Shown here: positions 1 to 15,176 of the stretch, one piece after another
Layout: each line of letters opens with the position of its first letter
Numbering within the stretch: the stretch's first letter is position 1
Source of the DNA: a virus
UHGV virus genome: UHGV-0203602
Strand: one strand, 5' to 3'
Length of the DNA stretch: 26,015 bases
Position numbers and translations under genes: made by a program
The notes under the pieces: model-generated
Databases searched by the model: none
What the model was told of the DNA's origin: nothing
What the model saw: the letters and a program-made list of their open reading frames with translations, nothing else

Positions 1-1385
1 GTGTTGGGTGTGTTTGGAGATGTCGGCTTAGACCACGTTCCTGTGTAATTGGCATCTGGAGCAAATGTGTTAATATCAGCATCTACAGGCATTTCGCCAC
101 GGAAACGCAGATAGGTATCAGGAGATAGGCCGATGTTGCGAGCAAAAGTTTCTTTATCTGGGATATCAGCGCCGTTAGAGTTTTTCTGTAACGCACCATT
201 CGCTTTATCTACGGTGGTTCTTAATCCCAAGAAATTGATGATATCCGCAGTTGACCCTTTCGCTAACAAGGATCTGGCCGTTTCTGTAAAATCCGTTAAT
301 CCGACTTTATTACTGCCGGTGAAATACAGGAGTTTGTTTGCCGCTGTGGTGACTGCGGCAATAGCGGTGAGTAACGGACTGAGAGGTTGTTTCTGCGCAA
401 GTTCCTCAGTAATCGTTGTTGCGAAGTTAGGGTCATTACCTAACGCCTCAGCTAATTCCGCTAAGGTATTTAACGTCTCGGGTGAAGAACCAACCAATTC
501 AGCAATCGCGTCACGCACCCAGGCCGTTGTGGAGATGCTCGTGTCATTCGAGTCCTTCGGCGGTTTTGGGGATGTCGGTTTGCCCGTAAAATTCGGCGAA
601 TGTTTATTGGCTTTTAACTGTAATTCGTCGTTCAGCTGTTTAACCGTGGACGGCGTGGCAGCCTCCGTCACGGATTCGCTAGTCAGGGTATCGTTAAGTT
701 TAACGATGCCTTTACCGATCGTACTAGCGTCAACTAAGCCTTGGGCGGCGATTTTCTCAGCACGTTGTGCGGCCGCTTCTGAGCGGGTAGCCGCGCCCTC
801 CGACGTTTCTTTATCTTTCGTGACCTGTGCAGCAATTTTCTCCACTGCACCTTTACTGGCCTCAACTGATGCCGCAGTATTTGCGACGCCGGTAGCCGTC
901 TGTTGAACTTGTCCGGCCTGTTGCGCAACCGTTTCTGCTTTCTTAGTTACATCAGCCGCCGCAGCCGTCACCGATTGTTCGCTTGCGGCGACAGCTTGAG
1001 CCTTCTCATTCACCGACACTGATACTTCGTCTACCGCCGTTTTCGCGGCTAATACTTCAGTGTGTTTTGTACCGACTTCAGTTGCTTTTTCGGTTACAGT
1101 TTGCGCTTGTTGAGCAACCGTCGCCGCAACGGTGTCAGTTTGTTGTTTTGCTGTTTCTGCTAAATTCTTTGCTTGTGTAGCCTGAGTTGCAGCTTCTTGT
1201 GATTGTGTTGCTGCTGTCTGTGCTTCAGCCACCGCATTACGTACGGTGTCAATATCCGCAATGATCTCACGGACTGGTAACTTATAATCTTTCTCATCCT
1301 TGGAGAAAAGTAAAACACCTTCACCGATATCACCGGTATATGGTCTAAGATTATGTAATCGTATTTTCTTTACCGCTTTCGCCAT
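1..1385 (-). CDS. Side tail fibre protein, lambda Stf-like; partial, C-terminus lies beyond the window start
   Basis: ATG at 1383-1385 (minus); my translation is stop-free to position 3. N-terminus MAKAVKKIRLHNLRPYTGDIGEGVLLFSKDEKDYKL, then an A/Q/T-rich coiled-coil-like region, then SPNFTGKPTSP...STTAWVRDAIAELVGSSPETLNTLAELAEALGNDPNFATTITEELAQKQPL, which closely matches the conserved central region of lambda Stf (from memory). Not in the ORF track because it runs off the edge. Confidence 0.85.
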   Translation of the reverse strand, partial: MAKAVKKIRLHNLRPYTGDIGEGVLLFSKDEKDYKLPVREIIADIDTVRNAVAEAQTAATQSQEAATQATQAKNLAETAKQQTDTVAATVAQQAQTVTEKATEVGTKHTEVLAAKTAVDEVSVSVNEKAQAVAASEQSVTAAAADVTKKAETVAQQAGQVQQTATGVANTAASVEASKGAVEKIAAQVTKDKETSEGAATRSEAAAQRAEKIAAQGLVDASTIGKGIVKLNDTLTSESVTEAATPSTVKQLNDELQLKANKHSPNFTGKPTSPKPPKDSNDTSISTTAWVRDAIAELVGSSPETLNTLAELAEALGNDPNFATTITEELAQKQPLSPLLTAIAAVTTAANKLLYFTGSNKVGLTDFTETARSLLAKGSTADIINFLGLRTTVDKANGALQKNSNGADIPDKETFARNIGLSPDTYLRFRGEMPVDADINTFAPDANYTGTWSKPTSPNTPN

Positions 1386-1416
1386 GATATTACGTTCTCT
1401 ATCGGGAGCTAAAGAT

Positions 1417-1441
1417 CGGGGGGAGTAGCTTACCCCCCCCC
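1417..1441. other. GC-rich hairpin (G7...C9 arms) between the 1001-aa gene and the tail-fibre gene
   Basis: ggggggg-agtagctta-ccccccccc followed on the plus strand by aatattttttat; lies about 20 nt upstream of the tail-fibre start on the minus strand. Confidence 0.4.
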
Positions 1442-1463
1442 AATATTTTTTATAAGCGGGTTA

Positions 1464-4400
1464 TTATTGCTCTGGTTTTAATGCATCGTCTTCTATCGTT
1501 AACGTAACGTCTAAGACCGCTTGACTGTGGTCAGTAATCGCTAAGTCACGATAAATATTAGCGTTGGCTCCGTAGGTTTTGTAAGTAACGTAGAGACCTA
1601 ACGCACGGAACGCTTCCCCGCTGTAGAACCCAAAAGCCATACCGTTATCGGAAGACTCTCGAGCGGCTGGAGACCACGCCCCGTTAATCGGCTTATTCGG
1701 AATTGAGGTAATCGTAAACCCTTCACCTAACTCCTTAATTGCCGCATTAACTACCTTATCGTAGTTCGGATTCGTTGCACCAGCGAGTAATGCCCAACAA
1801 CAGCCTGCTAACCACAACGCACACATATGTGCGGTGAAGTCATCTTCCACCCAAACGGGTTTATTCGGTGCTGTAGGGAACTCGTTAGGGGTGTGTCCGT
1901 TAAACCGATCCACAAACCCACCTAGCCAATTCACCCAGTTTTCAATATAGCTTGTTAACGCTTCAGGAACCTCTTTACCTCTTAGTTTCAGTTCGTACCA
2001 GCAACGACACGCCGCATGAAACGCGCGAGGTTGGTACCCTGCCCACGGATGGTCATCGCCCCAATGGAACGTTGTCCAGGTATCCGCTTCTCCGTAGCTG
2101 TAGTTGTCCCAACGGTTCCAGATATACGCCGCACAGCCAGGCCCTAATTCACCGAGTTGCTGTTGATAAGCCAACTGCGAATCGTACAAGAACTGAATCT
2201 GGTTATCTAACCACAACTTATACCGGTCGTCTTTGTGGATACTGTACATAAACGGATACTGATAACCCGGATAAGGCATCCCGTGCCAGGCACCTAACTG
2301 TTCTGAACCTTCTGAATAGTTGTTCGAGAACGGTATCGTGCCCGGACAATACGCTAACGAATCCAATCGGTAATCTTTAATCGTACAATCACCCACTTTT
2401 GCATCAAACTCGGCACCACCGCGCAAGGCAATACGGAAGGTTAAAATATAACCATCGTCTTTATTAAAGACCGGTGGAACATCGTTAATACAATAGTAAG
2501 CAAAGTGCGCATGGTCAACCGTCGTGTCAGGAAGAATCGTGACCTGATCCACCTTATCGAAATTCGGTGCTGAAGGTTCAGGGTCAGTGTCTGCGTGGTC
2601 TGGTTGATAACCGGAAAGTGTTGCATCCTCAAGATTCAACGTTACCTGACGCCATTCGTTGTTTGTGTTAGGTAACATCCACCACCAACGCCAGTTATCG
2701 CTGTCGACTAAACGCAGGTTAAAATCTGCGTCTGCACGGTAGACAATAGAAACTGGTTTTACCTTCTCTTCAGCGGTTAACCAGAACCCGATAATAAACC
2801 CGGCATCGTCATCAGGAAATTCAGCTTCTACTACAGTACCCGCGCGACCGTCGTAAATGCTATCCTCAAAACGTTCTTCCCACGTACAACCACCATAGTC
2901 CGAACACGCACGGGCGTCAGCTATCAGGTAGTCCTCCCCTTCTGGGGTGGTAATACGGGCAAGTTGGCCTAAGTCAATATCGTACTGCTTAACCGTGTTC
3001 GCTGTAGACCGAGGTAAAGTTAAACCATACCAGTTTACTTCCTCGGTATCGGCTTTCACAGGGTTAATATCTACCATCGTTCTACAGTAGACAGGATCAC
3101 CGTTCTTACAAACCCCGCCGTACGTGACACGAAGTTTGGAGTCTTTGCTAATCCTGAACCGAACCGCTTGTTGCTCCATAAAGTGCTGTACCGCTTCAGG
3201 CGCATGGATGGTAATGTCTCCATTCTCATCACGGCCGTAGGTAACACTTACGGTATCTGGGTAATCGAAGTCGTACGAAATACCATCCGTAAAAGGTGTT
3301 TCCGCAGCAGTAGAACGTCGGAAGAATTTATCTGTCGCATCAATATACGTGTACTCATGTGCTGTGTAGAAAGCACAGTCTAATGCTTGTTTGTATTTCT
3401 CTTCACCCGTGATTCGCCACAGCAAATAACAGGCGTCGATAAACCACAATTCAGCATCGGCAGCATTACCGTATTGGTTTTTCGACCCTAAGAACGGTGT
3501 GTGGACCGGACGGTTATGCCACGGTTCGTTACGTTTAAACTCGTAACCACCATGTTCAACAGGAAGTTTTACCGCGTAGTTAATTAAATAGACACCGTTT
3601 AACTGCGTGTCTTTTAACTGTACGGTACCTTTATCAGCGTCTGCTAATCCTGTCTCAATAATTTCGCTATCCTGGATTTTGTTACCCGTCCAGGCAATTA
3701 TCCAGTCAACGTCGTGTTTAGGGCCTTTTGTTGCAGAGCCGCCCCAAAGCGGGGTGTACCCTGTAGCGTTGTTTAATAACGTAGGCCAATCAACCCACGC
3801 TTTGGTCTCGTAGGCTTTATCAGGATTGGTAATAACGTGAGTTAAAACATCTTCCCAATTAATTGACCCCTCTTTGTCTTCCTTGATAATCTGTACGTCT
3901 GCGTTAATGGCACCCCAGGCAGGGTGACCACGATGCGCAAACGTAAAGGTATCCAAATACTCTCCCCAGAACGGTGCACCATGCGGTATTTTACACTGTC
4001 CATTTGTAAACCTTACAGGGACGCTTTTATACCCACCTTGGGTAGGTTCCGTAGGGTGTATTGGGTAATGTGCTAATACCGGTTCTTTCCCGTTTACCAA
4101 CCAGTTACAAATACGACGCTGGGGCGTGGTCGGGATAGGTTGTCCGACGTAGAAGTACGTATTGTACGCATCCCAGGCACGTTTCGCCGCATCTAACCAT
4201 CTTTCGTCTTTCGTTGCGATATACATGTGGCAGTAACCAATAACGTGTAACGACTGACCCTCGGTCGTCGCATCCCCGTTCGGTTGGTATTCCGCCATAG
4301 TGTCAGCAATGAAATGACGGTTATTCGACAGAACACCTTCTTCGTTTTGAATATAGTGTTCGTTGTGCGCGTCGTGAGTCGTTCCCGTATTCCGGGTAAC

Positions 4401-4469
4401 GAAGGATTGGTGACCGTAAGCTAACGATAACGCGTAGCTAATCGCGTGACGCTGAAAATGTTTTCTCAT
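1464..4469 (-). CDS. Large (1001 aa) tail-fibre-associated protein; putative carbohydrate-active / receptor-binding enzyme, family unassigned
   Basis: 3006-nt ORF lying between two genes that carry the tail-fibre N-terminal domain. Protein is W/Y/G-rich as in glycoside hydrolases or depolymerases, but no motif I can assign. Start ATG directly abuts the TAG of the upstream ORF. Confidence 0.6.
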   Translation of the reverse strand: MRKHFQRHAISYALSLAYGHQSFVTRNTGTTHDAHNEHYIQNEEGVLSNNRHFIADTMAEYQPNGDATTEGQSLHVIGYCHMYIATKDERWLDAAKRAWDAYNTYFYVGQPIPTTPQRRICNWLVNGKEPVLAHYPIHPTEPTQGGYKSVPVRFTNGQCKIPHGAPFWGEYLDTFTFAHRGHPAWGAINADVQIIKEDKEGSINWEDVLTHVITNPDKAYETKAWVDWPTLLNNATGYTPLWGGSATKGPKHDVDWIIAWTGNKIQDSEIIETGLADADKGTVQLKDTQLNGVYLINYAVKLPVEHGGYEFKRNEPWHNRPVHTPFLGSKNQYGNAADAELWFIDACYLLWRITGEEKYKQALDCAFYTAHEYTYIDATDKFFRRSTAAETPFTDGISYDFDYPDTVSVTYGRDENGDITIHAPEAVQHFMEQQAVRFRISKDSKLRVTYGGVCKNGDPVYCRTMVDINPVKADTEEVNWYGLTLPRSTANTVKQYDIDLGQLARITTPEGEDYLIADARACSDYGGCTWEERFEDSIYDGRAGTVVEAEFPDDDAGFIIGFWLTAEEKVKPVSIVYRADADFNLRLVDSDNWRWWWMLPNTNNEWRQVTLNLEDATLSGYQPDHADTDPEPSAPNFDKVDQVTILPDTTVDHAHFAYYCINDVPPVFNKDDGYILTFRIALRGGAEFDAKVGDCTIKDYRLDSLAYCPGTIPFSNNYSEGSEQLGAWHGMPYPGYQYPFMYSIHKDDRYKLWLDNQIQFLYDSQLAYQQQLGELGPGCAAYIWNRWDNYSYGEADTWTTFHWGDDHPWAGYQPRAFHAACRCWYELKLRGKEVPEALTSYIENWVNWLGGFVDRFNGHTPNEFPTAPNKPVWVEDDFTAHMCALWLAGCCWALLAGATNPNYDKVVNAAIKELGEGFTITSIPNKPINGAWSPAARESSDNGMAFGFYSGEAFRALGLYVTYKTYGANANIYRDLAITDHSQAVLDVTLTIEDDALKPEQ

Positions 4470-4931
4470 CTAGTAACCTGCTGCAAGAAGAGAACCTTTC
4501 CAGGTAGCTCCCCCATCAAGGGTATAAAGCGACAGTGTGTCTTCCGCATTTGCCGCGTAGGATAAAACTGGTTGTGCACCGTGAGGCCACTTAACATTAT
4601 CCGGCCAGGTTACTTTATTCGCCCCTGTTCCTTGCTTAAACGTTAGCATTACTTCGAAACGGGTATTTTCTGCAACGTTGGTAAGGGCTGCGAACGTCAC
4701 TGTAGTGGTGGGATCGTTTAACACCAGAATAATGTCAGTGCTGGTATTGAAATCCAACGTGGCTGCATTATTCGAACCGTTAACCGTGGTGACTGTCGCA
4801 ACCGGGGCTAACTTATCAACGTCAATTTTATATTCTTTATTGTCTTTGCTGTACAGTAACACCCCACCTTGTGGTGTGCCTGCGTAGCTATCGAGCTCAT
4901 GGAGTCTCGTCTTCTTCAGTGCTGTCGCCAT
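4470..4931 (-). CDS. Tail-fibre N-terminal-domain protein (153 aa); possible adaptor for the downstream 1001-aa protein
   Basis: Start moved from the track's GTG at 4964 to ATG at 4929-4931 (GAGG 6 nt upstream). N-terminus MATALKKTRLHELDSYAGTPQGGVLLYSKDNKEYKIDV is about 50% identical to the N-terminus of the Stf-like fibre. Confidence 0.75.
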   Translation of the reverse strand: MATALKKTRLHELDSYAGTPQGGVLLYSKDNKEYKIDVDKLAPVATVTTVNGSNNAATLDFNTSTDIILVLNDPTTTVTFAALTNVAENTRFEVMLTFKQGTGANKVTWPDNVKWPHGAQPVLSYAANAEDTLSLYTLDGGATWKGSLLAAGY

Positions 4932-5460
4932 CTGGAACCTCGAATGTAAGAACGCTATCGTCACCGATACAGAAAATTTCGTCTTCTTCGTTCGCTAACG
5001 CACGTTCAGTTTTATCAAATAACGTCACCATAAACGCATTCATCCACGCAGGTGAATCGTCAGCAACGTTAACAGCAATAGGATCGTTGCCTGAAGTAAT
5101 ATCTGAAGCGCGTAAGTCTTCAGGCTGTAAGTTCGTACCGCAGTATTCGTTTACGACGCTAAGAACATCGCGGATATTCGCTTCAGTACCGTCTAACGAA
5201 ATCAAAATAGGTTCAGACGTTAATACCTCATCGGCGTCGAGTCTATCGTAGTAGACTACAACGGACGCACCATCCGGTTTTCGGATTTTACTGATTTCGG
5301 TGATGGTGTTACGACGTGAAGTTGTTGGGGATGGGTTTGTTGCGGTTCCGCTAATACGAATTTCGTTTAGCGTAAGTTGTAACCCATTATCGTGATTGAT
5401 TAAAGCGACCACTAGCTCTGCTGAGGTCAGACTCAAATCAGGTACGTAAGATGCGGCCAC
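4897..5460 (-). CDS. Hypothetical protein (187 aa), acidic C-terminus; first gene after a terminator, possibly tail-associated
   Basis: GTG start at 5458-5460 preceded by GGAGGG (spacer 5 nt); lies immediately downstream (minus strand) of the terminator at 5476-5520. Confidence 0.65.
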   Translation of the reverse strand: MAASYVPDLSLTSAELVVALINHDNGLQLTLNEIRISGTATNPSPTTSRRNTITEISKIRKPDGASVVVYYDRLDADEVLTSEPILISLDGTEANIRDVLSVVNEYCGTNLQPEDLRASDITSGNDPIAVNVADDSPAWMNAFMVTLFDKTERALANEEDEIFCIGDDSVLTFEVPDGDSTEEDETP

Positions 5461-5475
5461 TTAACCCTCCAAGAT

Positions 5476-5520
5476 CAAAAAAAAATAAAACACCTACCGC
5501 CCATAGAATCGGGCGGTAGG
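5476..5520 (-). terminator. Intrinsic terminator
   Basis: Inverted repeat cctaccgccc / gggcggtagg with an 8-nt loop; on the minus strand the hairpin is followed by TGTTTTATTTTTTTT. Confidence 0.7.
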
Positions 5521-5529
5521 AGACTATTC
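5512..5529. repeat. 18-bp exact repeat GGCGGTAGGAGACTATTC, copy A (overlaps the terminator arm)
   Basis: Identical 18-mer also at 23375-23392. Confidence 0.8.
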
Positions 5530-5584
5530 TGTAATTGAAAATCAAGGACAGTTAGTGATTTTCGGAAGGTTTTGATAGAGTATT

Positions 5585-5959
5585 TTATTCGGTTAATTCT
5601 CCACACAACTCAACGTCGATACCAAACATCATTCCCACTTCTTGAAGTTTGTTCGCCAGTAAGTGACGATGACAAAACTTACCTGCGGGACAGTAACACA
5701 TCAAAACCAAGTCATCGTGTCTGAGTAACGACACTAGAACTTCGGCGTCGATATCTAACAGTCGTTCGAGTTTGTACAAATACTTTATCGTGTACTCACG
5801 TTCAGCGACAGCGTCCTGGGCAGAAGATTTATACGCCATTAGGAAATCCCAGTCGGGGGCGAGTTCCTTTCGCCCTGACTTCACAGTGATATCCACTGCG
5901 TGAAATCCTTTCTGCTTAGCTAACCGCCACTTAGCGAGTTGTAGCGTCCAGATACGCAT
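5585..5959 (-). CDS. DUF488/DUF4326-like protein (124 aa) with conserved C-x-C...C-H-R-H motif
   Basis: N-terminus MRIWTLQ... and C-terminal LVLMCYCPAGKFCHRHLLANKL resemble the DUF488 pattern (...LLCxExxPxxCHRxLxAxxL) as I recall it; TAATG coupling to the upstream gene. Confidence 0.5.
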   Translation of the reverse strand: MRIWTLQLAKWRLAKQKGFHAVDITVKSGRKELAPDWDFLMAYKSSAQDAVAEREYTIKYLYKLERLLDIDAEVLVSLLRHDDLVLMCYCPAGKFCHRHLLANKLQEVGMMFGIDVELCGELTE

Positions 5960-6156
5960 TAGGAGCGAGTCTGTGATTCAGCCATCAACGCACAACTTTT
6001 TACAGCTTGTGCATGAAGCTCTGTACCGGGTGTATAATCCTTTATACAGTCCTGGTACATTTCACGTTTCGTTTCTAAAGTACGAGAGTCGTACTCGGCA
6101 TTCGCTAAAGCCCCTGCAATAACGATAAAAACTACAATCGGCAACCAAATTTTCAT
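5959..6156 (-). CDS. Small secreted/periplasmic protein (65 aa) with N-terminal signal peptide
   Basis: MKIWLPIVVFIVIAGALANA-EYD: hydrophobic core and AxA cleavage motif; GGAGGG RBS; ATGA overlap with the upstream gene. Confidence 0.65.
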   Translation of the reverse strand: MKIWLPIVVFIVIAGALANAEYDSRTLETKREMYQDCIKDYTPGTELHAQAVKSCALMAESQTRS

Positions 6157-6365
6157 TTCCCTCCCCCCATTCGATTAGCGTATTCCGTACACGCCATTAC
6201 TAATTCAGCGTAACGTGGGCTATCTACAGTAGTGCCTGACATACATTCACGATAAAGGGAGTCTCTACGTGATTCGTCAGACGTCTTAACGTAGAACATC
6301 AACATCGCTACAATCAACGCAGTTGAAACGATTGCTGAAATGATATATCCGTCATTTATTTTCAT
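6153..6365 (-). CDS. Small membrane protein (70 aa), single N-terminal transmembrane helix
   Basis: YIISAIVSTALIVAMLMFYV hydrophobic segment followed by a charged tail. Confidence 0.6.
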   Translation of the reverse strand: MKINDGYIISAIVSTALIVAMLMFYVKTSDESRRDSLYRECMSGTTVDSPRYAELVMACTEYANRMGGGK

Positions 6366-6882
6366 CTATAAAGCACCAAGGTTCTGGATAAAAGTCTGTA
6401 AGTAAATCAACGTAAAAACTATGTAAATTTGATAGCTTTATAACACACCCTAACAAATCCTGATCAGTGCGATGATAAATCACCACAGAAGTTTCTGATA
6501 ATCGTTTAACATGTATAAACCCATCATCTTTTATTCTGCGATACAGCATCTTAAAATCGATTTCACCTACCGTATCAGGTTCACCTACGACGGAAAACCG
6601 AATATGTGGCCGTTCGCTACCTTGGGTTGATAAAAATTCCTCTGTCGTCATTGCATAAACCTGCCCTAAAAAGGATAGGTGGGGAATTACTTCTTTACGC
6701 AACTCGCTGCTCGAAATCTTAGCAAAAACCTGGCGTTCCGTTAAGCGCATTAACTCAGCTAATCTCCCCAAGTCTTTGTTATATCCCAAAAAAAGAGCCA
6801 CTTTCTCGTCATGCGTAATAGGCGGCCATTCGACCGCCTTTGCACGACGTTGCTTAAACCAACCCACAAGTCGTGCTATCAC
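6352..6882 (-). CDS. Hypothetical protein (176 aa)
   Basis: GTG start at 6880-6882 with GAGGA 9 nt upstream; no recognisable motif. Confidence 0.65.
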   Translation of the reverse strand: MIARLVGWFKQRRAKAVEWPPITHDEKVALFLGYNKDLGRLAELMRLTERQVFAKISSSELRKEVIPHLSFLGQVYAMTTEEFLSTQGSERPHIRFSVVGEPDTVGEIDFKMLYRRIKDDGFIHVKRLSETSVVIYHRTDQDLLGCVIKLSNLHSFYVDLLTDFYPEPWCFIDENK

Positions 6883-6884
6883 GT

Positions 6885-7577
6885 TTAGTAATCCTCAATC
6901 TGGTTTACTACACTTTGAATACGTGTTGCGACTTCATTAGTGTCCAGGTCAGTTTCGTCTACCTTATCCACGAGTTTCTGTACCTTACGTACATGCGGCT
7001 CAGTGATATCAAAACGACCACGATCGGCTAACAGCAACGTTACCATATCCTTACGCGTAACCATCAGTTCTTCTTCAGGTAAGTGTAAGGATTTGTCTAA
7101 CAGTCCAGAATGCATGAAGTTTTCCAGTAAGCGTTCTTCTCCCTGGTCGAAATCATAGCGTTCATTAGGTGCAGCAACGAAAGCATAGCCGAAGTAGTTT
7201 TCTTCTGTCTCACGTAGCGACTTGATGATTTTGTCACCGTGTTGACAGAAATCACTTAACGTGTAGTCGTCAAGCGTGGCCACGACGGTTTCTGCTTGCA
7301 CGCCGTTATCTGTTTCGTACAGATGCGCAACCCACAGCTTCCAGTTACGTGGCTCGTCAAACAAACCACCGATTAACATATCAGTCGCTGCCATGCGCAT
7401 ACGCGGTGACGTTGTAAACTGGAAACCACGGCCCGCGTACGGGCCGATAGGACGGATAGAGCTACCTACGAAAGTAATGCGGTTTAGCGCATTTTCAGCA
7501 ATGGTGTGCGCAGTACGGTTAGCAGCTGCTTTCGGGTTATACTTTTTGTTACGAGGTTTCTTTTGTTTGGTAGCCAT
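6885..7577 (-). CDS. Hypothetical protein (230 aa), basic N-terminus
   Basis: ATG start; TAATG overlap with the upstream gene; N-terminus MATKQKKPRNKKYNPK. Confidence 0.7.
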   Translation of the reverse strand: MATKQKKPRNKKYNPKAAANRTAHTIAENALNRITFVGSSIRPIGPYAGRGFQFTTSPRMRMAATDMLIGGLFDEPRNWKLWVAHLYETDNGVQAETVVATLDDYTLSDFCQHGDKIIKSLRETEENYFGYAFVAAPNERYDFDQGEERLLENFMHSGLLDKSLHLPEEELMVTRKDMVTLLLADRGRFDITEPHVRKVQKLVDKVDETDLDTNEVATRIQSVVNQIEDY

Positions 7578-8059
7578 TATTTATTCTCAACTAATACTGT
7601 GTGAAATGCTTTATAAAGAGCTTGACGTGTCTCAATTAATGCTGGTCGATTAATCAAGCACATGTATCCGATTTGCCAAGCCCAGTAAGACGTGTCGTTG
7701 GTGTTTAATCCATAATCAGGTTCAGGATATAGTAACTCCGAATCCACTTCTGGTAAATGAAGACGACACAAACTAAGATTCCAAAAGTTGGCTAAGTCAC
7801 ATTTTGCAAGTTCGCTCATTACCTGCATTGGTATCTGATTCCCAAGAGCATCCGTTGCGAAGATAATACGAAGATACCCTGGGGACTTAGAATAGATACC
7901 GTGTCCTTCACAAGACCAAATCGAAACAACATGTTGATGTTCGTTAATCAGTTTACAAATATCACGAACGCCTTTCTCAATGTCACCGTTTTTGGTTGCA
8001 GACTGAGCACGCTCTTTAAACGACGCTAGTCTTTCTGCGTCAACGCAAAAGCGAATCAT
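7577..8059 (-). CDS. Hypothetical protein (160 aa)
   Basis: ATGA overlap with the upstream gene; no recognisable motif. Confidence 0.7.
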   Translation of the reverse strand: MIRFCVDAERLASFKERAQSATKNGDIEKGVRDICKLINEHQHVVSIWSCEGHGIYSKSPGYLRIIFATDALGNQIPMQVMSELAKCDLANFWNLSLCRLHLPEVDSELLYPEPDYGLNTNDTSYWAWQIGYMCLINRPALIETRQALYKAFHTVLVENK

Positions 8060-8520
8060 GTTGGATTCTTCCCTAAGATTATCTCGCGCATTTCCAGATA
8101 GGTGTCAAACGGAACCACGGTGTCTTTATAACGGAGCGTTACGTAAGTTACGAAGTGCTGGGGTGCCAGGAAAGCACGTTTTGGCGACCCGTCGTGGTTG
8201 TAATACTGTTTCGGACGATAATTGTTGAAAATGTCTTCACGTGGGAACAACGATTTCTGAATAACCACTTCCCAACGGTGCGGCGTTTCCAAAAGCGCAA
8301 TCCGGTTCAGTATGTCATCTACCCAACGTTCCTTGTTTTCAGTTAATACGAAACTGATGTGATGATGCTGAACTTCTGCTAGTGCGATTTCGGGTTCTTT
8401 ATCCAGTTTCAACAATACCGCAAACAATGGACGATAATCAGAATCGTACAAGTCACGGAAAGCGGTTTTCTCACGCTGTTTAAACAACTCAACAATTTCT
8501 TTAGATTCAAAACATTTCAT
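8056..8520 (-). CDS. Hypothetical protein (154 aa)
   Basis: ATG preceded by AGGAG (spacer 8 nt). Confidence 0.75.
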   Translation of the reverse strand: MKCFESKEIVELFKQREKTAFRDLYDSDYRPLFAVLLKLDKEPEIALAEVQHHHISFVLTENKERWVDDILNRIALLETPHRWEVVIQKSLFPREDIFNNYRPKQYYNHDGSPKRAFLAPQHFVTYVTLRYKDTVVPFDTYLEMREIILGKNPT

Positions 8521-8565
8521 TTTCTTTTCTCCTAATCATTAAAATAGCCGCAGTTGTAAAAAAGA

Positions 8566-9087
8566 CTACGGGTTAAAAGGTAGCGGTTTGCAATCCCGCT
8601 TTTTCAACTCCTCTACTAACTCAGGTAATGTACACCATCGTTTAAATTGGTTGTTAGCTTTAAAGTGGCTGAGAATCTCCTCAACGCGCTCAATAGACCA
8701 CTTCCCTTTCCCTACGTTGTCTAGATCCTTACGTACCGAGAGCGTCTCAATGGTAAACGCTATCTCTGAGCTGTCCGAATGGTCGTACAGCAGTCTTACC
8801 GGTGTGGCTTGATGTAGCGTAACACGCCAACCTGACTCCTTAGCCCAGTAGACATCCTTAATACGTCCACTAACATCAATTATAGAGCTAATATAAGTCC
8901 ACTCTCCTTCTAGCTTGTTCTCTTCAGCAGTTAATGCTTCTTCTAATCGTAGAGAATTAGGGGACGGAATCCACCAACCGTACTTACCGTAATAATCGTC
9001 TATTACAGTGATACCTTCGTAATACAAATATTGTGTTTTTGTATTAACGAATATTTCATCGCCAATTAAAACCGCATTTATTTTCAT
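8566..9087 (-). CDS. Hypothetical protein (173 aa), translationally coupled to the HslV-like gene
   Basis: ATGA overlap with the upstream HslV-like CDS; no recognisable motif. Confidence 0.7.
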   Translation of the reverse strand: MKINAVLIGDEIFVNTKTQYLYYEGITVIDDYYGKYGWWIPSPNSLRLEEALTAEENKLEGEWTYISSIIDVSGRIKDVYWAKESGWRVTLHQATPVRLLYDHSDSSEIAFTIETLSVRKDLDNVGKGKWSIERVEEILSHFKANNQFKRWCTLPELVEELKKRDCKPLPFNP

Positions 9088-9572
9088 CGTAAATGCTTCC
9101 TGTAAAACAAGTCATAGGTGGTCGAGCTAGATGTATCAATAGACCCTACCAATGGTATAATTTTCTTTTCTGATATTCCTGTTGCCCAAGCTGCCCGCGC
9201 AAAGCCGCCACCAGAGCCCGTCGTCCAGACCGCATTTTTATTTATTACAAACGTTTTAAACTTATCTGCTACTAATCCAAGCCAATAGGTTTCTCTGGCC
9301 GTAAAAATGACGATTTGATCGAATATTTGCTCTTTTTCGAAAAGTTCCACAAGCACCGGTTCAACTTTCTTACGTTTATCCTCGTCTAAATATTTTTCTA
9401 TAGTAACGGTCATCGACGTTTTCCAAAACTCAGTGTCCAGTACACGTTCCCCAGTGTAGAAAACAAACTTGTTTTTGTGTTTATGTAGTTTGGGCAATTC
9501 TTTAACTGTTCCACTATATTCCACTAAACGATCGGCTAAAATGTAATCCTTTGTTACCAATACCGTTGTCAT
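9084..9572 (-). CDS. HslV / proteasome beta-subunit-like Ntn-hydrolase (peptidase T1-like), 162 aa
   Basis: Start taken as ATG at 9570-9572 (GAGGT 5 nt upstream) rather than the GTG one codon earlier. Protein begins M-TTVLV (Thr becomes N-terminal after Met removal, cf. HslV TTIVSV) and carries GSGGGFARAAW at residues about 120-130 (cf. HslV GSGGPYAQAAARAL); length is similar to HslV (176 aa). Confidence 0.55.
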   Translation of the reverse strand: MTTVLVTKDYILADRLVEYSGTVKELPKLHKHKNKFVFYTGERVLDTEFWKTSMTVTIEKYLDEDKRKKVEPVLVELFEKEQIFDQIVIFTARETYWLGLVADKFKTFVINKNAVWTTGSGGGFARAAWATGISEKKIIPLVGSIDTSSSTTYDLFYRKHLR

Positions 9573-9583
9573 CACACACCTCG

Positions 9584-9623
9584 AAGAAAAATAAAAGTAC
9601 CCTCTCTCCTAGCGGAGAGAGGG
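9584..9623 (-). terminator. Intrinsic terminator
   Basis: Stem ccctctctcc / ggagagaggg with a 4-nt loop; T-run on the minus strand immediately after (GGTACTTTTATTTTTC). Confidence 0.7.
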
Positions 9624-9630
9624 GCACTGC

Positions 9631-9900
9631 TTAAAACTTACGACTGCTACCGTAGCAACCACGACCGGCTGTCGTTTTCGCAGCGGTGGCCGGTGCTAAC
9701 GCAACCATCGTTCCATCTGTTTCGATGATGTGTAAGTTACCTGCACGAATCAAACCTTTGAAAGTAATCTTCACGCCTTTACGCAGGCTTTTCACATCAA
9801 AACCTTCAAGCTTGAGTGTTTTAACTTTTTCAGGTTTACCTTCTTCGTGATAAGAAAGAACATTACCTGAACGTTTCTCAACAATGTAAATCTTAGCCAT
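9631..9900 (-). CDS. Hypothetical small basic protein (89 aa)
   Basis: ATG with GGAG 8 nt upstream; first gene downstream of the candidate promoter/operator. Confidence 0.7.
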   Translation of the reverse strand: MAKIYIVEKRSGNVLSYHEEGKPEKVKTLKLEGFDVKSLRKGVKITFKGLIRAGNLHIIETDGTMVALAPATAAKTTAGRGCYGSSRKF

Positions 9901-9923
9901 TTTAGATTACTCCATTTAGTTAA

Positions 9924-9937
9924 GTGAGAATTCTCAC
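9924..9937. promoter_or_regulatory. Perfect 14-bp palindrome GTGAGAATTCTCAC; candidate operator
   Basis: Exact palindrome, sited at the predicted transcription start of the candidate promoter and 24 nt upstream of the ATG of the 89-aa gene. Confidence 0.4.
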
Positions 9938-9945
9938 ATAGATGA

Positions 9946-9974
9946 AATATATCTTAAATTTTTTAGACCGTTAA
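9946..9974 (-). promoter_or_regulatory. Candidate sigma70-type promoter (-35 TTAACG, 17-bp spacer, -10 TATATT)
   Basis: Minus-strand reading: TTAACG (9969-9974), 17 nt, TATATT (9946-9951); AT-rich spacer. Confidence 0.3.
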
Positions 9975-10282
9975 CTGGACAAAGCAATGTTAACCGACTT
10001 ACCAGGCAGCGGGAAATGCTGAAGTTCTATCGATAGAAGTTTCCTGTCAATTGTCAGTATTTCATCAACGTTGGGCGTAAGACGGAATATATCGCGCGGT
10101 AACGTGAAAGGCACGTTCGTCGAGCAGTTATTTAACCGTAACTGTCCCTGAGAATAATCAATCTCTACCACCCTCGCAATTACCCAACGATCGTGAATCT
10201 CGCCGCCTAGAGGTGCAGTTAGTGCCCGTTGCAAGCGCTGTATATTGGGCTCATCAGTATTAGTGCGGTTCTGGCTCGACAT
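9971..10282 (-). CDS. Hypothetical protein (104 aa)
   Basis: Start moved to the internal ATG at 10280-10282 (protein begins MSSQNRTNTD). The track's longer N-terminal extension is Cys-rich and overlaps the upstream gene out of frame. Confidence 0.5.
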   Translation of the reverse strand: MSSQNRTNTDEPNIQRLQRALTAPLGGEIHDRWVIARVVEIDYSQGQLRLNNCSTNVPFTLPRDIFRLTPNVDEILTIDRKLLSIELQHFPLPGKSVNIALSS

Positions 10283-10577
10283 AAATTTCCCCAAACACGT
10301 ATGCGGTTTCTGCTTCATTTGTCGGTTTAGCAACACACCACATCCATTCTTTAGTTTCAGGGTTTTGCCAGGACAACAAATGAACACCGTCACAAATTTC
10401 AGAGGTATCAACCTCTGGGTGGTATAGCATAAATTCGTTTTCGTTGTCATCCGTTACAACAAACTGCCCTTCTTCTACTCGTTGAAACTCAGCAACGCCA
10501 ACTAAAGTTAGCCCGCCTGTGTCATCTAAAGCTACTAGAGTTTTTGGCAAATCACGGTGAATAGCACTTAACCACAT
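10260..10577 (-). CDS. Hypothetical acidic protein (105 aa)
   Basis: ATG at 10575-10577 with GAGGAA 7 nt upstream (the track's start is a TTG five codons earlier). Confidence 0.6.
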   Translation of the reverse strand: MWLSAIHRDLPKTLVALDDTGGLTLVGVAEFQRVEEGQFVVTDDNENEFMLYHPEVDTSEICDGVHLLSWQNPETKEWMWCVAKPTNEAETAYVFGEIYVEPEPH

Positions 10578-10630
10578 CAGATTGTTCCTCAATTAATTTT
10601 GTTTACTTGTGCATAACTACGGCTATACGC

Positions 10631-10669
10631 GTAAAAATAAATACACCCTCTCTCCAAACGGAGAGAGGG
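10631..10669 (-). terminator. Intrinsic terminator
   Basis: Stem ccctctctcc / ggagagaggg, identical to the stem at 9600-9623 but with a different loop; T-run on the minus strand (GTGTATTTATTTTTAC). Confidence 0.7.
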
Positions 10670-10674
10670 GCAGC

Positions 10675-11181
10675 TTATAGCAGATTCTCTTCGCGATCAT
10701 CTACCAAGATAGACGTAATAACATAACGCGCTAAGCGACTACGCGCTTCTTCAGTTTCTTCGTCGGACGGTAATGGCTCACCTGCTGGCGCACACAACGT
10801 CAGTCCTGATTCACGAAGCTGTTCCGTGTATTCTTCTACGGCAGTTTCAAACGTACCGCGAATACCGGCGACGGTGTCCATAATCTCATCAGTTGGGATA
10901 ATGGATTCTTTCAACACCGCATGGGCATCAGTAGGTTCGACGGAGTCTAAGTTCAGTTCGACCAGCAACGCTTTCTTCGCCAGACAGTCAGTGATAAAAC
11001 ACGACAGAACTTTTTCAAACTCATCTAAACTGAATTCGGTGTCATCAGAGGCACCGGTGATGAGCTGACCGTAACGGTTAAACAGCTCTTTACAACGTGT
11101 TTCATGATCAGCATCGATATCACGAACACCGAGGTCGAAATCGTGTTGTTCGAGCTGATTAAAATCCAGAGTCTCACTCAT
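10675..11181 (-). CDS. Highly acidic protein (168 aa); function unknown, candidate DNA-mimic / anti-restriction-type protein
   Basis: About a quarter of residues are D or E, in clusters (DFDLGVRDIDADHE, SDEETEEARS); GGAG RBS; last gene of the Dam-containing operon. Confidence 0.7.
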   Translation of the reverse strand: MSETLDFNQLEQHDFDLGVRDIDADHETRCKELFNRYGQLITGASDDTEFSLDEFEKVLSCFITDCLAKKALLVELNLDSVEPTDAHAVLKESIIPTDEIMDTVAGIRGTFETAVEEYTEQLRESGLTLCAPAGEPLPSDEETEEARSRLARYVITSILVDDREENLL

Positions 11182-11220
11182 TATTAAAGTCTCCAGTTAA
11201 GAGGTCATATTACCTGCTGA

Positions 11221-11448
11221 CTAGAGGGCCAGCGTTAACCCCGTGTGGGTTTGTACTGAACCAACACCGTCACGCGCTTTCGCTTTTGCGATAAGTTTGT
11301 CAATCACACGTTGGTGACTGCGCGTAATAACTTTACCCGGATAACCGATAATGAGCGCATTTTCGCTGTTGATTACCGCCGAGAATTCGTTATCGCCTGC
11401 GACGTAAACAATCTGTTTGTTTTTGGTTACAATACGTTTGATTTCCAT
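11221..11448 (-). CDS. Hypothetical protein (75 aa)
   Basis: ATG with AAGGA 7 nt upstream. Confidence 0.65.
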   Translation of the reverse strand: MEIKRIVTKNKQIVYVAGDNEFSAVINSENALIIGYPGKVITRSHQRVIDKLIAKAKARDGVGSVQTHTGLTLAL

Positions 11449-11457
11449 TCATCATCC

Positions 11458-12231
11458 TTAAAAGATAAAGTGGCCGGTTAATGGTTCTACCTCAACTCCA
11501 CCCATAGACGGTGGGGCTGTGTATGGAAACGTGAGGCGAACAGTTGCGCCTTTCAGATAAGCAATACGGAAATACGTGGTTAGTAGTGCGTTTCCGTAAG
11601 TGCAATCGTTATAGAAAAAGCCTTCGGTGGCAAACGTCTTTTCGTTGATTTTCGAATAGACTAAGATACCTTCAACCTTACCGTCTTTACGACAACACAA
11701 CCCTTCTGCTGCGCCTACGGCTAACAACCCTAAACAATGCGTGTCCAGGTTGACATTAACAACCTTAGGAATCGTAAACGTCTCTTCTAACGTTAGGGAT
11801 TCAACGTCGAACACGTCAGGTAAGTCAGTGCGCACTTCTGGCTTTTCAGTAATCGTAAGGTCATAATCGATTGACGTCGGTTGCATACCTAAAAACGTCA
11901 TTAACTGATCACGACGTTTTAGGTCATTAGCAGGGTAGGTGACATCAAACATCTTCACGTTTAACAGACGTTTGAGTTGGGCGAAATTGATGTTCTTCTT
12001 CGCAAACACAACGATTGCGGACATGTAGAATATCTTACCGTCTGCACGCCCTGAAAAGATGCCCTGTAACTGGTTAGTGTTCGAAAGGATGATAAAGGTG
12101 GGGTCTTCAGATTCCCGAATGATTTCCTTTTCCATTAACCCTTTGCGTACACGGGTTAACGAAACCATTTTCCCATCGACACCAATCGCCAAATGGTCAT
12201 TACGATAATCGTGGATATCCACTATACGCAT
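11458..12231 (-). CDS. Hypothetical protein (257 aa), translationally coupled to the Dam methyltransferase gene
   Basis: TAATG overlap with dam; no recognisable motif. Confidence 0.75.
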   Translation of the reverse strand: MRIVDIHDYRNDHLAIGVDGKMVSLTRVRKGLMEKEIIRESEDPTFIILSNTNQLQGIFSGRADGKIFYMSAIVVFAKKNINFAQLKRLLNVKMFDVTYPANDLKRRDQLMTFLGMQPTSIDYDLTITEKPEVRTDLPDVFDVESLTLEETFTIPKVVNVNLDTHCLGLLAVGAAEGLCCRKDGKVEGILVYSKINEKTFATEGFFYNDCTYGNALLTTYFRIAYLKGATVRLTFPYTAPPSMGGVEVEPLTGHFIF

Positions 12232-13046
12232 TAGAGCACTCCTAACAATTCCGTTACCGTTTTACGAGCAGCACCTGACGCACCCATGTATCGCCCTACT
12301 TCTACAGAACGCCATTCGAACCCGTAATAAATCTCACGCGTTAGTAACGTATCTGCATTGGACAACACAACGCTATTCCCTTTCTCAACCTGCTTAAACA
12401 GCGCTCTGGCGAGTTCCCGATGGTCGGCCTGGGAAAACTCCTTCCGATGGTATTGCGCGTGTTTAGCGGTCTCTGAGAGCGGTATATAAGGTGGGTCTGC
12501 GTAAATCACGCTGTCATCCGGTGTACGCTCTAAAACTGTTCGGAAATCCTCACAAACAATTTCTAAGTATTCCGGTTCTTGACAACGTTTAGCCCAACCA
12601 CGAATCTCTTCTAACGGGTAATACACACCGTTAGGATAGCGACCAAACGGAACGTTAAAACCACCGCTGCCGTTGTAACGACACATCCCGTTAAAACCGT
12701 GACGCATTAAGTACAGAAACATTGCAGCACGATCTAACGGAGCCATATCCGTTTCACGATTAAACAACTCACGGCGTTCCATATACTTAATACAATCGTT
12801 ACCGTCTTCGAATAGCGGTTTCGACTTTAAGATAAGTTCTTCAGGTTGGTCTTTCGCCACATTCAGCAACTGGATTAAGTCAGGGTTAGAGTCAGCAAGA
12901 ATGTAACGTTTATAACGTGTGTTCAAAAACACTGACCCTGCGCCAACAAACGGTTCAACGAAAGTGGTACGTTCAGGTAAGACTTGTAGTAAGGTGTCGA
13001 TAATCCGCGATTTGCCACCCATCCACTTTATAATTGGTTTATGCAT
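12231..13046 (-). CDS. dam: DNA adenine (N6) methyltransferase, Dam family
   Basis: IKWMGGKSR, VEPFVGAGSVFLN and the catalytic DPPY (YADPPYIPLS) are collinear with E. coli Dam (KWAGGKYPLL, VEPFVGAGSVFLNT, DPPY). Confidence 0.9.
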   Translation of the reverse strand: MHKPIIKWMGGKSRIIDTLLQVLPERTTFVEPFVGAGSVFLNTRYKRYILADSNPDLIQLLNVAKDQPEELILKSKPLFEDGNDCIKYMERRELFNRETDMAPLDRAAMFLYLMRHGFNGMCRYNGSGGFNVPFGRYPNGVYYPLEEIRGWAKRCQEPEYLEIVCEDFRTVLERTPDDSVIYADPPYIPLSETAKHAQYHRKEFSQADHRELARALFKQVEKGNSVVLSNADTLLTREIYYGFEWRSVEVGRYMGASGAARKTVTELLGVL

Positions 13047-14025
13047 TAATTCCGCCTTGTAACGATGACATTTCGTCGCCTAGCACTAACTCGACGCGGT
13101 TTTTCCGACGCTCCCAACTGACGACATCGTCGTCGCGCACTAAAACAAATTCGTACTCGTAGGGACGGAATTTAAACAAATCTACAGCCAGGTGTCTAAA
13201 TGCTGGGTTGTTATTGTAACACCCTATTTCTAATGGTGCTGCTGTTGTCGATGCAATCTGTAAAGCACGGTACAACAACGCACGCCCAATCCCACGGCCC
13301 CGGTGTGACTCACTTACCGCAATGGCTTTTAGTTCGCACTCGCTAAGATTGCGTGATTTAACTTGCACCACACCCACAATGTCGTTACCGTCCATCCAAA
13401 CGTAAGTGTAGTGATTGACGTGACGCACTAACTCCACCAGCGTTTCAACTTGCGGCATTATTTGTCGAGAACGCGTCACAGGGTCAGCATTGATGTTTTC
13501 AACAACGCTAGTGCCAAACAACGTCATGAGCTGTTCACGTTGTGCTCTGGTTAAGTCTTTATAGAAGTCGCCAGAGACGTTCTTCACGTTCGTCGGTAAA
13601 GTGACATCCAGTAGCTTACGCGTACCTAAACGATATGCTGTGTGGGTATGTCTAAACCCTAAATCGTTAAACTCAGCAATTTCTTCCACACCTCTGGCAA
13701 TTCGGTTAAGGTACGTAAACCCAGTATAGTCGAGTACCAGTAGAAGACTCAGTTTGTTCAAACACCCAGGTACAATTTCGTGCATATACAAGCAGTGTAA
13801 CGTTGGGTCACCGTAAATGTGTTTTGTGATGATAAACCCTTGGATTGTTTTTCCTTTTTGTAAAGAGAACGTATTCAGCTCAGTATTGCACAGTGCTTCA
13901 CGAATCGCCGCACCGTTAGGCCCCGTTAAACATGCCTGAAGCTGAGGATTGCGAATATCTCTACGGGTTAAGCGTCCTACTGTTAAATCAGAAGAGGTTC
14001 TTTCTATCGTTTTACGATATACCAT
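13039..14025 (-). CDS. GNAT-family N-acetyltransferase domain protein (328 aa; C-terminal GNAT, N-terminal about 200 aa unassigned)
   Basis: C-terminal IAVSESHRGRGIGRALLYRAL (GNAT acetyl-CoA-binding motif A, R-x-x-G-x-G); strong RBS AAGGAG; 8-nt overlap with the dam start. Confidence 0.7.
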   Translation of the reverse strand: MVYRKTIERTSSDLTVGRLTRRDIRNPQLQACLTGPNGAAIREALCNTELNTFSLQKGKTIQGFIITKHIYGDPTLHCLYMHEIVPGCLNKLSLLLVLDYTGFTYLNRIARGVEEIAEFNDLGFRHTHTAYRLGTRKLLDVTLPTNVKNVSGDFYKDLTRAQREQLMTLFGTSVVENINADPVTRSRQIMPQVETLVELVRHVNHYTYVWMDGNDIVGVVQVKSRNLSECELKAIAVSESHRGRGIGRALLYRALQIASTTAAPLEIGCYNNNPAFRHLAVDLFKFRPYEYEFVLVRDDDVVSWERRKNRVELVLGDEMSSLQGGINA

Positions 14026-14054
14026 TTTAATACTCCTTATCGGCCTTCCTCACA

Positions 14055-14098
14055 ACAAAAGAAAAAGTTGTAAAAAGAAAAAGGGAGCCGAAGCTCCC
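14055..14098 (-). terminator. Intrinsic terminator
   Basis: gggagc-cgaa-gctccc hairpin (UUCG loop on the transcript) followed on the minus strand by a long T-rich run. Confidence 0.65.
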
Positions 14099-14111
14099 TG
14101 TTTGTTACAAA

Positions 14112-14795: not shown

Positions 14796-14816
14796 GATAA
14801 TACTCCTTTAGGTTGA

Positions 14817-15176
14817 TTAGTGTGTTGCGGTGTTAGTAACAAAACGAATATTCTTCGCGGTACGTTTAAGGGACGTATTTGCAACGTAGTCCAACGCAGA
14901 CTCTACGTGAACCGTTACGGAGCAACGCCCTTTAACGGAATTAAACGTAATCTGATATTTCAGACGAATTGCATCAGCAACCTTCATCATTATCGGTAGA
15001 CTCAGGCGTTCGCTATGATCGTTCTTAATAGATGAAATAACCGATTGTGAGACTTTCGCAAGCTGGGCAAGTTCACGCTGTGTAATGTCTTTCGCTGTCA
15101 AATGACGAATCACGTAAGAGAGATGAAGACCGAATTTACGTTTTGCTAAAGCAATAGAGTTGTGATTGTAAGCCAT
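14817..15176 (-). CDS. XRE-type helix-turn-helix transcriptional regulator (about 119 aa)
   Basis: ITQRELAQLAKVSQSVISSIKN is a typical Cro/C1-type HTH; start placed at ATG 15174-15176 (AGGA upstream) rather than the track's TTG. Confidence 0.65.
   Translation of the reverse strand: MAYNHNSIALAKRKFGLHLSYVIRHLTAKDITQRELAQLAKVSQSVISSIKNDHSERLSLPIMMKVADAIRLKYQITFNSVKGRCSVTVHVESALDYVANTSLKRTAKNIRFVTNTATH

Follow-up and report, generated by a model that had tools for sequence, protein, structure and literature searches.

A short N-terminal peptide shared by putative host-recognition proteins in a variable locus of an SPN3US-like jumbo phage

Gene organization of the locus

The DNA analysed in this study is a stretch of 26,015 nucleotides from the viral genome UHGV-0203602, referred to here as the window. 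Its left end (1-5460), where all genes lie on the minus strand, encodes a long tail fibre, a 1001-amino-acid (aa) tail protein, a 153-aa protein and a 187-aa protein with a DUF7941 domain. The fibre and the 153-aa protein begin with a similar stretch of about 40 residues, which we call the anchor and which is the subject of this report. In the order of transcription, a hairpin (5520..5493) is followed by the 187-aa, 153-aa and 1001-aa genes, a second hairpin (1441..1418) and the fibre gene. The features are listed below by window position.

5493..5520, minus strand: terminator-like hairpin just 5′ of the DUF7941 gene, 11 pairs including 8 GC, T-rich tail
5460..4897, minus strand: 187-aa short DUF7941 protein (PF25613, E 1.9e-20), orthologue of SPN3US gp122
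4931..4470, minus strand: 153-aa protein (phrog_9017), orthologue of SPN3US gp123
4809-4931, minus strand: anchor of the 153-aa protein, codons 1-41
4473-4799, minus strand: beta-sandwich of the 153-aa protein, about 105 residues
4469..1464, minus strand: 1001-aa tail protein (phrog_2871), orthologue of SPN3US gp124, phi92-type gp097 and rV5 gp42
1418..1441, minus strand: G/C hairpin between the 1001-aa stop codon and the fibre start (-22.3 kcal/mol, z -1.4)
1385..1, minus strand: 5′ part (461 codons) of the long Stf/T-even-like tail fibre gene, running off the window edge
1263..1385, minus strand: anchor of the fibre, codons 1-41, MAKAVKKIRLHNLRPYTGDIGEGVLLFSKDEKDYKLPVREI (BLASTP; profile score 89 bits)

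The hairpin at 5493..5520 marks the start of the 187-153-1001 transcription unit, in which the 187-aa and 153-aa genes share a 35-nucleotide overlap, GAGG is found 9 nucleotides 5′ of the 153-aa ATG, and the ATG of the 1001-aa gene abuts the stop codon of the 153-aa gene. The hairpin at 1418..1441 is a probable weak terminator or attenuator. Its z score against shuffled sequences was not significant; its stem varies among relatives, with pairing kept by compensatory changes (GGGGGGGGG...CCCCCC versus GGGGGAGGT...ACCTCCCCC). The 153-aa frame was also open for 21 codons upstream of its ATG (4897-4994), with a GTG start in the window and ATG in the related loci L010 and L011. A programmed frameshift fusing the 187-aa and 153-aa genes was considered and rejected, because neither the overlap nor the upstream frame is conserved in SPN3US, where the overlap is a single base, and because of the GAGG Shine-Dalgarno sequence before the 153-aa ATG. 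Since it is not conserved in SPN3US, the upstream extension was judged to be incidental.

A common N-terminal module

The initial annotation of this region had reported that the first 40 or so residues of the fibre and of the 153-aa protein are about 50% identical, while their C-terminal parts are unrelated. Both N-termini were present exactly as quoted, and their pairwise alignment was significant, with BLASTP matching residues 1-50 of one protein to residues 1-48 of the other (25 of 50 identical, 33 of 50 positive, E 1e-11). No second significant segment was obtained from this comparison (next best E 3.1), and because similarity was significant at the N-termini only, the C-terminal parts are indeed unrelated. 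The ungapped BLOSUM62 score of the first 41 residues was 106, while the maximum in 100,000 shuffles was 29 and none reached 106. The DNA of the two 41-codon stretches was 54% identical, with third positions identical in 13 of 41 codons; the similarity is therefore held at the protein level and does not reflect a recent duplication or a nucleotide element.

When the first 52 residues of the fibre were searched against a phage database of 2.3 gigabases, the matches were N-termini of orthologues of the 153-aa protein only (E 6e-7 to 2e-2). The anchor was almost invariant in seven related fibres, whose first 458 residues are 80-97% identical to the window fibre. A 45-column profile, run with full HMMER against 1.84 billion representative proteins, gave 22 matches, 18 of which carried the anchor at residues 1-41; the exceptions were a few repetitive or scrambled sequences. 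The database "proteins" P0151 and P0153 consist of SPN3US gp123 segments in scrambled order, and are probably assembly or gene-calling artefacts. A word-indexed protein search with a 48-column anchor alignment returned fragments only, comparison with Pfam and PDB gave only chance-level matches, and no description of the anchor family was found in the literature. Inspection of the anchor by eye showed no prohead-protease cleavage site (A-x-E). In the predicted structure of the 153-aa protein, residues 1-41 formed a weak beta-hairpin with predicted local distance difference test (pLDDT) scores below 50, and the anchor is predicted not to fold alone.

The anchored proteins in the HMMER scan were 133-1494 aa long and had unrelated distal parts, as follows.

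154/156 aa: gp123 type, tip domain
1494 aa: long fibre
205/206 aa
273 aa
188 aa
133 aa
706 aa: sialic-acid-specific acetylesterase (SASA, PF03629) and DUF6645
709/710 aa: immunoglobulin (Ig)-like and propeller-like parts

The anchor is combined with at least seven different distal parts, which include a fibre, an enzyme and binding domains.

The long fibre and the 153-aa/1001-aa pair

The label "Stf-like" given to the fibre in the initial annotation was borne out by a match to PF03406 (Phage_fiber_2; E 1.7e-9, 37.6 bits with a cut-off of 22) and by many tail-fibre PHROGs. The fibre is a mosaic of gp34/gp37-like segments (47-48% identity) and Stf/P1 S-like segments (55-61%). Its distal two-thirds lie outside the window, as do the gp38, DUF7941b and 206-aa genes, and were read from relatives that are 92-97% identical. 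Over 458 aa, the window fibre has 97% identity to that of L004, which is 1517 aa long, and in the closest relatives the full-length fibre has 1493-1541 aa with a Peptidase_S74 intramolecular chaperone at its C-terminus. About 1100-1300 N-terminal residues are common to the long fibres of relatives, whose tips differ. A T2-type gp38 adhesin gene (PF05268, glycine-rich) and then a Gp38_N gene are found 3′ of the fibre in relatives, and these T-even host-recognition parts in a chimallivirus span 13547-19545 in L004, 13546-19188 in L010 and 13546-19539 in L011. The fibre of L018 has a Collar-type tip and a Caudo_TAP chaperone instead.

The 153-aa protein matched phrog_9017 over its full length (residues 1-153, E 2.2e-39) and was 47% identical to SPN3US gp123, which has the same neighbour genes. 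Its residues from about 45 to 153 form a beta-sandwich (model pLDDT about 80-87), and this domain, referred to here as the tip domain, is also found at the C-terminus of many longer phage fibre-like proteins. The 1001-aa protein, which lies between the two anchored genes as initially annotated, gave a full-length profile match to phrog_2871 with 1466 bits. Its homologues were found in 538 phage records, 521 of which cover at least 80% of the query, and more than 100 positions were invariant across 36 homologues (46-78% identity), many of them acidic or aromatic. The acidic residues that do not vary in the family include D66, E70, D338, E340, D377, D380 and D395. It matched no Pfam family at E <= 0.1 and no PDB sequence relative. 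The structural model was confident (pLDDT 87, predicted template modelling score 0.84) and consisted of an (alpha/alpha)6 glycosidase-like barrel of helical hairpins with inserted beta-sandwiches resembling carbohydrate-binding modules. The structural matches, of the (alpha/alpha)6 fold type of glycoside hydrolase families GH8, GH76, GH88 and GH105, were 9-14% identical, which is a resemblance of fold only. A right-handed parallel beta-helix (pectate-lyase fold) was absent from the model, and none was found among the top structural matches. The 1001-aa protein probably binds or cuts a surface polysaccharide. The suggestion that it may be depolymerase-like thus holds at the level of fold, although not as membership of a CAZy or Pfam sequence family, and the fold is not the usual beta-helix. 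Nor does the protein belong to a non-structural enzyme family unrelated to virions, as phrog_2871 comprises tail proteins and SPN3US virions contain gp124.

Mass spectrometry of SPN3US virions detected both gp123 and gp124, with similar numbers of spectra per kDa (PMC5694885 supplement). Going by counts of records and genera, the distribution of the tip domain is nearly equal to that of the barrel protein (520 and 538 phage records, respectively, with almost identical genus counts). The small gene is directly followed by the big one in SPN3US, Asesino, pEa29, rV5 (gp43/gp42) and phAPEC8 (gp098/gp097). The pair is probably one functional unit, and is present in over 500 genomes of widely differing phages. 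When the small protein is not in use, the barrel is joined directly to a baseplate element: in protein P0088 to a P2 gpI wedge domain (PF09684, E 7e-52), and in Goslar gp92, which is homologous to the 1001-aa protein, to a DUF7941 module that has been reported at its N-terminus (preprint 10.64898/2026.04.21.720040). Because it is fused elsewhere to a wedge domain or to DUF7941, the barrel protein seems normally to be tethered to the baseplate periphery, and a connector would be needed here. Other members of the barrel family have Ig-like, lectin-like or propeller-like C-terminal extensions, which fits an outward-facing, host-contacting protein. We infer that the 153-aa protein probably serves as an adaptor bearing the 1001-aa protein, rather than as a free-standing receptor-binding protein. 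The idea that it corresponds to the linker of Goslar gp92, a Rosetta stone of three genes, was rejected, as there was no similarity and no tip domain was detectable in the Goslar locus. Structure papers on phi92 and Sf14 give no position for the homologues.

Relatives and exchange of distal parts

The 187-aa, 153-aa and 1001-aa genes are syntenic orthologues of gp122-gp123-gp124 of Salmonella phage SPN3US and gp139-141 of Erwinia phage Asesino, with identities of 47% for the small protein, 72% for the big one and 45% for the DUF7941 protein. Both phages belong to the nucleus-forming Chimalliviridae, a group of jumbo phages. The phage database contained no close relative, and the best nucleotide match in it was 72.8% over part of the 1001-aa gene. 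NZ_CP173450.1, a circular "plasmid" of 221,873 bp (p98232-contig_4) from Escherichia coli 98232 (urine, Egypt), was 92-96% identical over window positions 64-15757; its positions 39431-64867 are referred to as locus L024. This element is evidently this jumbo phage's complete genome, recorded as a plasmid; since it was found in E. coli 98232, the host is most probably E. coli, and the record perhaps points to a carrier state. The same locus was found on IMG/VR and Logan contigs of 134-225 kb. Its gene orders in the window lineage and its relatives, numbers standing for protein lengths, are as follows.

Window, L004, L010 and L011: DUF7941a, 153, 1001, fibre, gp38, Gp38_N, DUF7941b, 206 (L011 ends before the 206-aa gene)
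L018: ...1001, fibre with a different tip, Caudo_TAP, DUF7941b, 207, 710
L015: DUF7941a, (153 and 1001 deleted), fibre, two Gp38_N genes, DUF7941b, 706
L019: DUF7941a, (153 and 1001 deleted), fibre, Gp38_N, 273, DUF4376, DUF7941b, 709, DUF4376
E. coli 98232 (L024): window order, with the 206-aa gene deleted to its last 13 codons

All anchored genes were located in this one hypervariable locus near short DUF7941 genes. The initial annotation had proposed two receptor-binding proteins with a common anchor; sharing of the anchor was confirmed, while the 153-aa protein is more probably an adaptor and relatives carry not two but up to four anchored proteins per genome. In SPN3US, Asesino and pEa_SNUABM_29, the gp123-type gene is the sole anchored gene. 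A single genomic slot behind DUF7941b is occupied among close relatives by the 206-aa protein, the 706-aa SASA esterase or the 709/710-aa Ig-like and propeller-like protein.

The deletions in relatives, which come from metagenome or isolate assemblies, hit precisely the anchored genes and have left scars at the locus. In L015 and L019 the 153-aa and 1001-aa genes are gone, yet DUF7941a is kept, as is an intact fibre whose anchor is unchanged. The scar in L019 (2857-3021) retains the first 17 or so codons of the 153-aa gene (MTTQLKKTRLHELDRF...), that in L015 (1587-1785) retains the last codons of the 1001-aa gene (...LTLEVDGLKPV), and that in L024 (4387-4654) corresponds to the last 13 codons of the 206-aa gene. 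Because these two deletions keep the anchored fibre, the anchor is independent of the 1001-aa protein. At the sequence level, a constant anchor with exchanged distal parts is the pattern expected of exchangeable host-range cassettes. The cassette proposal of the initial annotation is sustained in this respect: apart from the repetitive or scrambled entries, the anchor was only N-terminal among the 1.84 billion proteins searched, different anchored genes occupied the same slot in relatives, and comparison of the related tail modules showed distal parts swapped behind a retained anchor.

Further window genes, at 5585-5959, 9084-9575, 12231-13046 and 13039-14025, include those for a DUF488-N3a protein, a protein with a weak match to an HslV-like peptidase, a DNA adenine methylase of the Dam type and a GNAT acetyltransferase. 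The SPN3US gene syntenic to the HslV-like match is annotated as a head maturation protease. The remaining open reading frames of the window belong mostly to PHROGs without known function.

A putative docking peptide and its candidate partner

We consider it probable that the left end of the window is a host-recognition locus of an SPN3US-like jumbo phage, and that the shared N-terminus is a lineage-specific docking peptide. The peptide of about 40 residues would fix interchangeable host-recognition proteins to one kind of site at the tail periphery. Indirect indications of such attachment are its place at the very N-terminus, its disorder in the monomer model and the occurrence of SPN3US gp123 in virions. 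The SASA esterase, the gp38-adhesin partner and the glycosidase-like barrel are suggestive of distal parts that would bind or modify receptors on the host surface. One anchor would mount the 153-aa adaptor, whose beta-sandwich would hold the 1001-aa glycosidase-like barrel protein, and a second would mount the long T-even/Stf-like fibre carrying a gp38-type adhesin, encoded just outside the window. The virion would then be at least bivalent in this phage and multivalent in relatives, and recombination behind the anchor would swap distal parts and change the host range. The docking site would most likely be the short DUF7941 protein encoded immediately upstream. Peptide docking, its target, the adaptor role of the 153-aa protein and any enzymatic activity are the steps that we infer in this scheme.

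The assignment of the short DUF7941 protein as docking partner is tentative. The 187-aa protein scored 73.9 bits against PF25613 (Pfam cut-off 27), its residues 8-151 matching positions 3-155 of the 276-position profile, and it consists of the N-terminal globular DUF7941 module only, followed by an acidic tail. In SPN3US, Asesino, pEa29, L018 and L019, and twice each in the window lineage and in L015, an anchored gene is located directly 3′ of a short DUF7941 gene. The DUF7941 proteins fall into two paralogue types, 30-35% identical, which pair with the anchor subtypes KK.RLH and [VI]GK.R[IV]HEL. In Goslar, another short DUF7941 gene precedes the long fibre. In the Goslar preprint, DUF7941 proteins assemble in vitro into head-to-tail filaments, a phiKZ member is placed at the outer baseplate, and the family has been reported to polymerise head-to-tail from the chimallivirus peripheral baseplate (10.64898/2026.04.21.720040). 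The short DUF7941 proteins beside anchored genes have a conserved C-terminal strand motif, [IV]GDDxVLT[FY] or DN[RK][VI]LTF, and this loosely resembles the anchor core strand G[GE]GVLL[FY]S. One idea suggested by these motifs is that the anchor may mimic a DUF7941 docking strand. A possible extension, put forward with some reserve, is that the peptide is a non-covalent plug for DUF7941 modules at the baseplate periphery, so that the version in Goslar would be covalently fused and that in this lineage split.

Several points weigh against DUF7941 as the partner. In virions, SPN3US gp122, the DUF7941 protein, went undetected or nearly so (0, 0 and 5 spectra; PMC5694885 supplement), which would be unexpected of a structural docking platform and would suit a chaperone just as well. 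The DUF7941 paralogue family was also placed in the head by the SPN3US group, because members persist in tailless mutants. Anchored genes outnumber DUF7941 genes in the L018 and L019 loci, and the window fibre gene and the 273-aa gene of L019 both lack a DUF7941 gene directly before them. The correlation of subtypes a and b could reflect a shared duplication history only. Finally, the fusion of Goslar gp92 to DUF7941 is based on the preprint and a weak BLASTP match (E 0.008), and a Pfam scan found no DUF7941 in gp92 at E <= 1e-3.

Part of this evidence speaks for docking of the anchor to a conserved baseplate or wedge protein encoded elsewhere, with the short DUF7941 proteins acting as assembly factors or as unrelated "fibre-cloud" subunits. 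It would account for virions in which gp122 is nearly undetectable while gp123 and gp124 are present, for the excess of anchored genes in L018 and L019, and for E. coli 98232, which keeps DUF7941b despite the deletion of its anchored neighbour; it also agrees with Goslar, where the short DUF7941 gene precedes a fibre with a P2-gpH-type N-terminus and not this anchor. However, DUF7941 genes and anchored genes are neighbours in all the lineages seen, the paralogue type matches the anchor subtype, and the preprint describes a DUF7941-barrel fusion in Goslar (10.64898/2026.04.21.720040). We regard a partner encoded elsewhere as somewhat less likely than DUF7941, for which the odds are themselves below even.

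The initial annotation also suggested a dual-specificity or branched apparatus. A branched form built on the 1001-aa protein would have both anchors docking onto that protein in the way that CBA120 tailspikes dock on TSP4/TSP2. The two anchored genes do flank the 1001-aa gene, and rV5 has the same layout, with gp43 and gp41 sharing about 100 common N-terminal residues around gp42. This arrangement is nevertheless improbable, as L015 and L019 lack the 153-aa and 1001-aa genes and have an intact anchored fibre, and the 206-aa, 706-aa and 710-aa anchored genes are far from any 1001-aa paralogue. It is yet more doubtful that the shared peptide is a starter of folding or trimerisation, or a chaperone tag, with each protein attached by other means. 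The peptide is disordered in the monomer model, trimeric fibres often require nucleation at the N- or C-terminus, and the chaperone-like genes DUF4376, Caudo_TAP and Gp38_N are found in the same locus. However, the fibre chaperones that are known work on the C-terminal parts of fibres, hardly anything but the peptide precedes the sandwich of the 153-aa protein and could attach it, and monomeric-looking enzymes such as the SASA esterase bear the peptide too, always at the extreme N-terminus, where phage fibres attach. A chance similarity, or an artefact of composition or nucleotide sequence, for which the shortness of the region (about 41-50 residues) might speak, has practically no likelihood left, being refuted by the alignment (E 1e-11), the shuffles (0 of 100,000), the randomised third codon positions and the database matches to the same module only.

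Host recognition of nucleus-forming jumbo phages (Chimalliviridae) is poorly resolved, and the 2026 structure of Goslar left both the peripheral baseplate ring and the tail fibres unassigned. The locus described here reveals proteins that are exchanged among close relatives and all use one short N-terminal peptide travelling with short DUF7941 genes. It provides a concrete hypothesis of how they are attached, and a small tag with which new receptor-binding domains could be grafted onto phages of this kind. If the DUF7941 plug is true, it would be the missing link between the chimallivirus peripheral baseplate and receptor-binding proteins, and a portable retargeting tag; the proteins hung on the DUF7941 scaffold would then include a T-even-type long fibre bearing a gp38 adhesin, as well as a glycosidase-like barrel and a sialate esterase. 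The barrel protein itself combines a glycosidase-like fold with no assigned activity, and occurs with its small partner in more than 500 phage genomes.

Comparison with known systems

Conserved N-terminal anchors on exchangeable tailspikes and fibres are well established in CBA120 (TSP1-4 with T4 gp10-like domains), G7C (gp63.1/gp66) and K1-5/SP6 (an adaptor with tailspikes), and phi92 is multivalent. The strategy of placing exchangeable host-recognition proteins behind a common anchor is thus already well known in phages. The present system resembles these in having several host-recognition proteins per virion, a conserved N-terminal attachment part with unrelated, exchangeable distal parts that include enzymes, and variation among relatives that is concentrated behind the anchor. 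It differs in that the anchor has only about 40 residues, no detectable Pfam or PDB relative and, by prediction, no independent fold, and in that it is found in nucleus-forming jumbo phages beside DUF7941 genes.

A closer parallel in layout is provided by rV5 (gp43-gp42-gp41) and the phi92-type phages (gp098-gp097-(gp096)-gp095), which have the same order of a small tip-domain protein, a barrel of about 1000 aa and a fibre or spike, and whose tip domain and barrel are homologous to those of the window. In rV5 (L023; gp43 at 5340-6008, gp41 at 8643-12461), the N-termini of gp43 and the 1272-aa fibre gp41, which flank gp42, are 38% identical over about 100 residues (E 2e-17). In phAPEC8 (L022; gp098 at 6516-6989, gp095 at 12036-14801), gp098 and the endosialidase gp095 have a similar N-terminal motif by eye; the comparison that was scored is that of gp098 with rV5 gp41 (E 2e-5). 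Homology of the present anchor to that of rV5 and phi92 was tried and rejected, as hhalign gave a probability of 5.7% with 18 columns aligned. Those phages also differ in being without DUF7941 and in having the module directly after the baseplate hub and spike genes. Since rV5 and phAPEC8 show a parallel arrangement, the small-big-fibre layout with common N-termini is either old or recurrent.

In Goslar (gp93-gp92-gp91-gp90), short DUF7941 genes likewise lie beside a homologue of the 1001-aa protein (39.5% identity) and a long fibre, and the locus has been described with predicted carbohydrate-binding and glycoside-hydrolase parts and a proposed DUF7941 "fibre cloud" (bioRxiv 10.64898/2026.04.21.720040). 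It differs in the reported fusion of the barrel to a DUF7941 module, in having no detectable tip-domain protein in the locus, and in the N-terminus of its fibre, which is P2-gpH-like instead of this anchor. SPN3US gp122-124 and Asesino gp139-141 are an orthologous and syntenic trio, but with one anchored gene only, and no long fibre, gp38 adhesins or second DUF7941/anchor cassette downstream.

With the distal half and gp38 of the T-even long tail fibre, lambda Stf and P1 S, the window fibre shares Phage_fiber_2 repeats and gp34/gp37-like and Stf/P1 S-like segments, and its relatives carry T2-type gp38 and Gp38_N genes. In contrast to those fibres, its N-terminal attachment part is replaced by the chimallivirus anchor, and fibres of its type are a single chain of about 1500 aa with a Peptidase_S74 chaperone. 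Compared to these systems, the new elements are the anchor family itself, its small size and predicted lack of an independent fold, its association with DUF7941 in chimalliviruses, and the T-even-type fibre and adhesin parts that are grafted onto it.

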